Source of the DNA: Nitrospirota bacterium
GTDB lineage: Bacteria > Nitrospirota > RBG-16-64-22
Length of the DNA: 55,251 nucleotides
Direction: 5' to 3'
Assembly (NCBI GenBank): GCA_016195465.1
Contig: JACPZO010000065.1
Location: 1-55,251, forward strand
Shown here: positions 11,981-12,611 of the stretch, in pieces
How the letters are laid out: the number at the start of each line of letters is the position of its first letter
How positions within the stretch are numbered: the stretch's first letter is position 1
Made by a program: the position numbers and the translations under genes
Notes under the pieces: generated by a model
What the model was told of the DNA's origin: nothing
What the model saw: the letters and a program-made list of their open reading frames with translations, nothing else
Database searches by the model: none

Positions 11981-12611
11981 ATGCCTGATTCGAGCCTTGC
12001 TCCGACGGAGCGCATCGAGCGTGCGATCATGCTCATCCGTGGCGAACGGGTGATGCTGGATGCTCATTTGGCCGAGCTCTATCAGGATGCTGAAAAAGTC
12101 CATCCATGGCTTTTTCAGCCACGACTTGCGCGAAGTGAATTCGCGCAAGTCTTTCAAATCGCTTGACTTCAAATCTTCGCGATTTGGCGGTGCATCCCTG
12201 CACCGCACGCAAGCTGCTGTTTTGCGGGAAGAGTTTGCAAACTTGAGGTCACAGATTGTGACCTCAAGTTGGGGCGGCCGGCGGTATCCTCCCTATGTTT
12301 TCACCGAGCACGGCGTGGCAATGCTGTCCAGCGTCCTGCTAAGCCCCCGCGCTGTTCAGGCCAACATCGCGATCATGCGGGCGTTCGTTCGTCTTCGAGA
12401 GACGCTGGCCATCCACAAGGAGCTGGCGGCCAAGCTGATGAGTCTGGAGCGCAAGATCGCGGGACACGACGAGAGTATCCGCACGTTGTTCGAGGCCATT
12501 CGCCAGCTCATGGCACCACCGGAGAAGGCGCGTCGCAAGATCGGCTTCCGCGTGGGGGAGAGGGGTCCGGCGTATCGGGTGCGGCGCCTGCGCCGGGGGT
12601 CATCGCGGTGA
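11981..12611 (+). pseudogene. ORF6N-domain (KilA-N-like DNA-binding) gene disrupted by a multi-hairpin element
   Basis: The N-terminal part ...ERIERAIMLIRGERVMLDAHLAELYQ is in one frame. The C-terminal part [58 protein letters not shown] is in another frame. The roughly 27 conserved residues normally between them are replaced by the repeat at 12085-12226. Confidence 0.7.
12085..12226 (+). repeat. multi-hairpin repeat element, copy A
   Basis: About 85% identical over its first ~78 nt to 22611-22688. Hairpins lie at 12090-12118, 12123-12151 (12-bp perfect stem), 12155-12186 and 12187-12206. Confidence 0.85.

Follow-up and report, generated by a model that had tools for sequence, protein, structure and literature searches.

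Two hairpin elements flanking a UG21-class reverse transcriptase operon in a Nitrospirota contig are probably independent insertions of a small non-autonomous MITE

The window (the whole 55,251-nt stretch of Nitrospirota DNA that was analyzed) carries in its fabF-kdsB interval a vapBC toxin-antitoxin pair, a broken ORF6N gene and a predicted defence operon composed of a type IIG-like methyltransferase (MTase), a UG21-class reverse transcriptase (RT), a four-helix-bundle (4HB) protein and a PLD+SNF2 helicase (Table 1). Two hairpin-rich elements, copies A and B, lie on either side of this operon. A 261-aa open reading frame at 10965-11750 was rejected as spurious, the real genes there being vapBC on the opposite strand. 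Between vapB and ORF6N, four perfect tandem doublets stand back to back within 146 nt (11715-11860), with units of 10, 11, 14 and 15 nt (AACCTGACGG, CCATGGGTGTG, GCCCGAGAGGAATC and GCCCCTGGCGTAGT) that do not occur elsewhere in the window. Because the doublets are identical in two independent short-read assemblies, they are not an artefact of a single assembly. Further along this contig of 65% G+C, A+T-rich runs with a 7-nt period (ATTGAAA/ATTGTAA) occupy positions 35827-35981, 39573-39664 and 45661-45696.

Table 1. Positions of the hairpin elements and neighbouring genes in the window
Feature	Position	Strand	Basis or remark
vapC/vapB toxin-antitoxin pair (context)	11013-11593	-	Gene calls, PF01850 + PF09957; Hainich homology ends just beyond
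ORF6N 5' fragment, ends ...RGERVMLDAHLAELY	11936-12082	+	Pfam PF10543 positions 2-26, frame of 11876-12166
Copy A left-flank target CTAT	12079-12082	+	Family left-flank consensus T/CTAN
MITE copy A (assigned to A subfamily)	12083-12224	+	nhmmer E = 3e-39, model positions 1-141 of 151
Copy A hairpins	~12089-12119, 12123-12151, 12155-12186, 12187-12206		Then a degenerate fifth hairpin
ORF6N 3' fragment, other frame	12228-12611	+	Pfam PF10543 positions 50-86, E = 1e-9
Defence operon (context)	12839-22373	+	Pfam and PADLOC scans
Type IIG-like MTase	12839-16522	+	
UG21-class RT	16529-18394	+	
Four-helix-bundle protein, 213 aa	18391-19032	+	
PLD+SNF2 helicase	~19029-22373	+	
ParE/RelE-like toxin 3' remnant, last ~70 nt, ends ...VYLITDGRRDMQTLLARRLFGT and stop	22476-22545	+	Homology to RBG_16_64_22 begins here
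Copy B left flank CTAA	22605-22608	+	Right flank is CCGA, hence no intact duplication
MITE copy B (assigned to B subfamily), full-length 151 nt	22609-22759	+	nhmmer E = 4e-46, profile match 22610-22759, model positions 2-151

A sequence-only reading of this DNA had described two related hairpin elements in the same orientation, and this description was correct: both lie on the plus strand, 10.5 kb apart, and each folds into five consecutive hairpins (-68.1 kcal/mol and z = -5.9 for copy A; -77.6 kcal/mol and z = -7.9 for copy B). The copies are 85% identical in their first 85 nt and diverge beyond. Across the whole window, a 33-nt core matched the plus strand at 12085 and 22611 only, against a chance expectation of 0, and a search with a family profile (nhmmer; 27 full copies, 151 model positions) found no third copy in the 55 kb. 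Copy A has lost its last ~10 nt, which correspond to the right arm of hairpin 5 and the right terminal repeat. It is 97.7% and 93.7% identical to two copies in the genome Nitrospirae RBG_16_64_22 (L004 and L029, respectively). Copy B sits in a spacer 72 nt upstream of kdsB, and its closest relatives, L025 and L083, are 87-88% identical to it. On these alignments, copies A and B evidently belong to different subfamilies.

Copy A interrupts the ORF6N gene. Relative to intact metagenome homologs (L113, L114), 28 residues (GV...QLTP; 84 nt) are absent from the encoded protein, and copy A sits exactly at that place. The earlier proposal that the element replaced the middle of ORF6N therefore stands with respect to the gap and to the split between frames, but not as a clean replacement, since copy A is itself end-deleted. 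The truncated end is joined directly to the remaining ORF6N sequence, and a single reading frame crosses all of copy A and continues into the 3' half of the gene. On the left, the flanking CTAT falls within the Leu-Tyr codons CTC TAT of ORF6N. Copy A would thus have inserted into this CTAT; a later deletion of ~100 nt would have taken the last ~10 nt of the element, the duplicated target and 84 nt of ORF6N, leaving a frameshifted pseudogene. We infer this order, insertion and then deletion, and the right-hand CTAT duplicate was lost with the deleted segment. The 3' fragment has 538 metagenome relatives with up to 76% identity. Neither the element nor an RT was found near ORF6N homologs at 80 other loci. 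A separate feature of the gene is that its first codons at 11943-11966 (MRSQIGASS; aggtcacaaattggcgcctcaagt) share 20 of 24 nt with positions 12245-12268 (LRSQIVTSS; aggtcacagattgtgacctcaagt), which suggests that the 5' end of ORF6N may have been built from a partial duplication.

Both copies belong to a widely dispersed family. A 19-mer at the top of hairpin 1, AAAGTCCATCCATGGCTTT, was found at at least 102 loci in a species-representative genome collection. The element is present in many copies per genome, with at least 11 in the closest relative, RBG_16_64_22. Among the matches listed were metagenome-assembled genomes (MAGs) labelled Nitrospirae/Nitrospiria, groundwater Deltaproteobacteria, Thermodesulfobacteriota, Pseudomonadota, Leptospirales and Zetaproteobacteria, where taxon labels and bins are those of the depositors. 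Viral contigs and plasmids yielded no element matches. In Rfam 15 nothing matched at the gathering threshold (the best sub-threshold hit scored 26 bits, the threshold being 48.7), and the core sequence had no match in the searchable literature, so the family seems to be undescribed. Two contigs from Logan assemblies of the same strain (L105 and L106, from SRR12113414 and SRR12113415) end at window positions 12105 and 12108. Because these ends fall within hairpin 1 of copy A, the repeat appears to break assemblies. When copies were excised in silico and the reading frame across the junction was examined, only short frames were obtained in genomes of moderate G+C, which indicates intergenic positions there; at 64-70% G+C the result says little, since copy B, known to be intergenic, also yields a long frame.

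The members of this family are built from modules. The consensus is 151 nt long, and sizes span 43 to ~350 nt: forms of ~100 and ~130 nt are without some modules, forms of 200-350 nt have duplicated or nested hairpins, and minimal forms occur (loci L099, L096, L026 and L077), one of them 43 nt long (CAGGATGTTGAGAAAG-TCCATCCATGG-CTTTTTCAACACCCTG). Two architectures were distinguished. The first is the ~151-nt type of the window copies. The second (TTGATAGGGTCGTAAAAAG...GTCATCAA; for example L097 and L100) has other downstream hairpins, so that hairpin 1 is the only common part; Pseudomonadota CSMAG_1715, Proteobacteria SZUA-178 and N04 bin.36 contain this type in very high numbers. The 23-nt core of hairpin 1, AAAAAGTCCATCCATGGCTTTTT, is unchanged between these two otherwise different subfamilies and across MAGs assigned to several phyla by their labels, and the apex motif of hairpin 1, CCATCCATGG, recurs in hairpin 4. 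The interior of the element consists of hairpins only and contains no transposase gene, and its size lies below the ~500 bp by which MITEs are defined.

The ends of the element and their flanks carry the signature of a transposon. The left terminal repeat, CAGGATGTTGAAAAAG, and the right one in reverse complement, CAGGGTGTTGAAAAAC, agree at 14 of 16 positions, with a T-to-C change at both ends in the G+C-rich A subfamily; five palindromic modules lie between these repeats and overlap them. The flanking consensus is T/CTAN on the left (the slash separating the T at -5 from the tetranucleotide) and CTAN on the right. Perfect 4-nt direct repeats flank 10 of the 27 full copies (37%), compared with 3.7 in shuffles, and none of 5000 shuffles gave as many as 10. 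At the variable fourth base the two sides agree in 18 of 27 copies, where ~8.5 would be expected by our own estimate from the flank base counts, and matched pairs that depart from the consensus (CTGA/CTGA, TTAT/TTAT) also occur. An IS630-like duplication of TA was rejected, as it leaves the co-variation of the fourth base unexplained. T occupies position -5 of the left flank in 23 of 27 copies and the symmetric A on the right in 12 of 27; because the left T is the more conserved, the left boundary of the element is only partly settled.

Comparison of related genomes gave three pairs of filled and empty sites. One copy in RBG_16_64_22 is flanked by CTAT and CTTT where the window has a single CTTT; copy B has no counterpart in RBG_16_64_22; and the copy at L037 is flanked by CTAA on both sides and is missing from the corresponding site in L025. 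The empty site for copy B does not reveal a clean 4-bp duplication, and the window copies themselves are without one, the right side of copy A having been lost and the flanks of copy B differing. Many dispersed copies and differences in presence between related genomes are properties of MITEs.

An autonomous parent would be recognized by the end sequence CAGGRTGTTGAAAAA in inverted orientation together with a 4-bp CTAN duplication. No autonomous insertion sequence with the same ends was found in the ~0.8 Mb of DNA searched. Inverted pairs of terminal repeats spaced 0.4-5 kb apart were sought at all loci, and the candidates enclosed ftsZ, nuoD or a DsbC-like gene and no transposase. An all-against-all megablast for multi-copy segments in the DNA searched returned orthologous regions only. 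From the target duplication alone, we infer that the mobilizing enzyme may be an IS5-like DDE transposase.

To place the borders of the island, the window was aligned with two relatives. Window positions 22760-29276 are 94.5% identical to contig MHEK01000051 of RBG_16_64_22, and 22476-22569 match positions 6840-6745 of its locus L004 at 94.8% identity. That genome has a complete pair of antitoxin and ParE/RelE-like toxin genes upstream of kdsB (L004 6545-7307). Homology to RBG_16_64_22 starts at 22476, inside the toxin gene and 133 nt to the left of copy B, which places the island's right junction at this position. The spacer between toxin and kdsB is common to the two genomes and the repeats within it differ: reading the junction by eye, we found RBG_16_64_22 empty at the site of copy B and occupied ~40 nt further left by an inverted A-subfamily copy (that with 97.7% identity to copy A), so that the MITEs differ in both position and orientation. 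In this relative without the island, the breakpoint is therefore at 22476 and not at copy B.

A more distant relative, Hainich Nitrospiria, has the same fabF...kdsB synteny. By blastn, its homology to the window stops at ~11612 and resumes at 22763, and in between it carries a different cargo of 3.5 kb without a copy of the element (L193 6509-10001: MNT/HEPN, an unknown 334-aa gene, an HI1420-downstream-like gene, and VapB with a truncated VapC). Judged by the two relatives, the variable region of the window extends from ~11613 to ~22760. Copy A lies ~470 nt inside this region, within a cargo gene, and the right end of copy B falls within 3 nt of where Hainich homology begins; the argument that copy B occupies the edge of a permissive spacer is the sole explanation we offer for this coincidence. 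The G+C content drops from ~70% to 53-63% across the whole fabF-kdsB interval and past both copies. The interval (window 10961-22831) is a hotspot of variable cargo, the contents differing in all three relatives examined.

We also asked whether the element accompanies the operon elsewhere. Homologous operons of the form MTase-RT(-cargo)-PLD/SNF2 were read with up to 10 kb of flank where contigs allowed. At five independent loci with MTase-RT 75-79% identical to those of the window, no element was found nearby. Conversely, tblastn with the MTase, RT, four-helix-bundle protein and helicase gave no match in the element loci (102 matches listed). The roles that the sequence-only reading suggested for the copies, cassette ends or an RT-associated RNA, are contradicted by this distribution, with the element at at least 102 unrelated loci and none of those listed carrying the operon; such a spread over unrelated places is what that reading had itself named as its refutation. 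Elsewhere, pairs of copies in the same orientation with 4-5 kb between them enclose rodZ, GAF and TPR genes, or trpE and an MCP (chemoreceptor) gene. An exact-sequence look-up of three window proteins returned no record. In four of the 75-79%-identical operons (L107, L109, L111 and L112), the inserts between RT and PLD/SNF2 helicase vary and include SPL-domain proteins, HEPN/MNT pairs, an OLD-family ATPase-nuclease and AbiEii; the window operon has just the 213-aa four-helix-bundle protein at this position. In L112, the helicase precedes the MTase, as does a Bro-N protein.

The hairpins of the family are well maintained. In the hairpin columns, 96% of cells are paired, and 15 pairs have changed on both sides compared with 8.1 +/- 1.6 in shuffles (0/500) and at most 7 for slid partners. 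Changes run almost only between Watson-Crick pairs, with 70 double changes versus ~16 G-U cells by our own count from the per-pair table. Because G-U cells are few and nearly all changes are Watson-Crick to Watson-Crick, the hairpins are probably kept as DNA palindromes rather than as an RNA fold.

Taken together, these data are best explained if copies A and B are independent insertions of a ~151-nt non-autonomous MITE and neither an edge of the island nor a part of the RT system, a reading to which we assign a probability of roughly 85%. Membership of the family, its terminal repeats, 4-bp duplications and insertion polymorphism, and the absence of a link to the operon are directly shown. 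The guess in the earlier reading that the copies were MITE-like mobile DNA was right in kind, with each copy being itself a MITE rather than the end of something larger. A DDE transposase supplied in trans would bind the terminal repeats, excise the element and paste it into T/CTAN, duplicating 4 bp. Copy B would have inserted separately from copy A, into a permissive spacer upstream of kdsB and beside the promoter region of that gene. That the operon falls between A and B would reflect nothing more than the density of the family in this lineage and the tolerance of a variable, non-essential stretch for insertions.

The sequence-only reading had offered two roles that tie the copies to the operon. 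According to one, they delimit a mobile cassette, or served as recombination sites, through which the MTase-RT-4HB-helicase genes arrived. The shared orientation of the elements around the operon would agree with this, as would the intact state of the two outward-facing ends (left repeat of A, right repeat of B) and the position of copy B against the start of Hainich homology. However, RBG_16_64_22, a genome without the operon and without copy B, retains positions 22476-22603 (toxin remnant and spacer) in synteny with kdsB, so this segment cannot be cargo of a unit that ends at B. Nor do the outer flanks, CTAT and CCGA, form a duplication; the copies come from different subfamilies, the left edge of the variable region is at ~11612 and not at copy A, low G+C reaches beyond both copies, and homologous operons elsewhere are without such repeats. 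With island breakpoints at 22476 and ~11612, we consider cassette ends very improbable. Even less credit is due to the second role, a structured RNA associated with the RT, which we took as a noncoding RNA working with the UG21 enzyme as retron msr-msd or DRT ncRNAs do. The stability of the multi-hairpin fold, its compensatory changes and the nearby RT gene would suit such an RNA, but more than 100 copies (102 matches listed) occur at loci without an RT, and the five independent RT operons have no element in the flanks examined. Copy A lies in another gene, ~600 nt ahead of the MTase, and copy B downstream of the helicase, the pair changes follow the pattern of a DNA palindrome and not of RNA helices, and no Rfam family is matched at threshold. 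The RNA proposal is thus not borne out.

The main rival as to mechanism keeps the copies as mobile DNA and has them move, like REP/REPIN or PATE elements, as single-stranded hairpin DNA by means of a tyrosine HUH transposase (RAYT or IS200/IS605 TnpA). This route fits the anatomy of an element built of hairpins and maintained at the DNA level, in which a hairpin is directly bordered by a conserved tetranucleotide (CTAN, or TAG...CTA around hairpin 5), much as by GTAG in REPs. The 23-nt core common to two otherwise different subfamilies, the 43-nt minimal forms and the failure to find a DDE parent in the DNA searched are also in its favour. HUH-type elements neither duplicate their target nor carry terminal inverted repeats. 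The fourth flank base here co-varies between sides, filled sites have an extra tetranucleotide and the ends match at 14 of 16 positions, none of which this route accounts for, and no Y1 transposase (RAYT) adjoins any copy inspected; we therefore regard it as unlikely. It may instead be that copies have been adopted by the host, for example as REP-like stabilizers or processing sites of mRNA or as regulators of kdsB or the defence operon. Hairpins conserved by compensatory change could be read in this way, as could copies inside operons (between nuoE and nuoD, and downstream of ftsZ) and the presence of a copy just upstream of kdsB in both the window and RBG_16_64_22. However, a fixed regulatory role is hard to reconcile with the different placement, orientation and subfamily of these two kdsB-proximal copies, the scarcity of G-U pairs argues against selection on RNA, and no promoter-like or terminator-like site was found in or adjoining copy A or copy B. 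We consider host adoption quite improbable. A long shot of a different kind is that the AAAAAGTCCATCCATGGCTTTTT core might be the recognition hairpin of an undescribed cross-phylum transposase or recombinase, possibly a single-strand one, and that the kdsB-proximal copies might act as recombination substrates that aid the exchange of cargo at the hotspot.

Independent MITE insertion, the reading we prefer, finds its closest parallel in the IS5-derived MITEs of bacteria, the counterpart of Tourist/PIF-Harbinger elements. Like the present family, these are small, non-coding, multi-copy and insertion-polymorphic, with terminal inverted repeats and a 4-bp duplication at targets of the CTAA, CTAG, CTAT or CTTT type. 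IS5 itself makes duplications of Py-T-A-Pu tetranucleotides, and its documented target sites include CTAG, CTAA and CTTT (PMC5493358). The present family differs in that its fourth target base is often T or C and not a purine only, in that its interior consists of five discrete palindromes rather than one long hairpin, and in that no IS5-family parent was found. Chunjie of Geobacter uraniireducens Rf4 is A+T-rich and 178-235 bp long, with 21-bp terminal repeats and 9-bp direct repeats (PMC3184786). It resembles the present family as a MITE of a deltaproteobacterial lineage with very stable folds that can enter operons and genes (PMC3184786; PMC10969869). The dimensions seen here (~151 nt, ~16-nt repeats and a 4-bp duplication) do not agree with those of Chunjie, and we rejected identity with it.

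Other bacterial repeats share single traits with this family. BOX of Streptococcus pneumoniae and the BIME/REP clusters are likewise assembled from hairpin modules, which copies may lose, duplicate or exchange. BOX and REP elements are without the combined signature of terminal repeats and target duplication, and REPs are associated with RAYT genes. Like copy A, Rickettsia palindromic elements (RPEs) and intragenic ERIC or Correia copies are palindromic repeats inside a protein-coding gene. Insertion of an RPE keeps the reading frame and yields a fusion protein that still functions, whereas copy A comes with the 84-nt deletion and a frameshift, and ORF6N is broken. Overall, the family fits the pattern of ordinary MITEs.

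For the window, these results mean that the defence island is not a cassette bounded by repeats and that its RT is without a visible RNA partner here. Because the element has no link to the operon, annotation of UG21-type systems should exclude these hairpins. More broadly, the family provides a handy marker of recent genome change in uncultured Nitrospirota and Deltaproteobacteria of groundwater and sediment, and it accounts for contig breaks in assemblies of those lineages.
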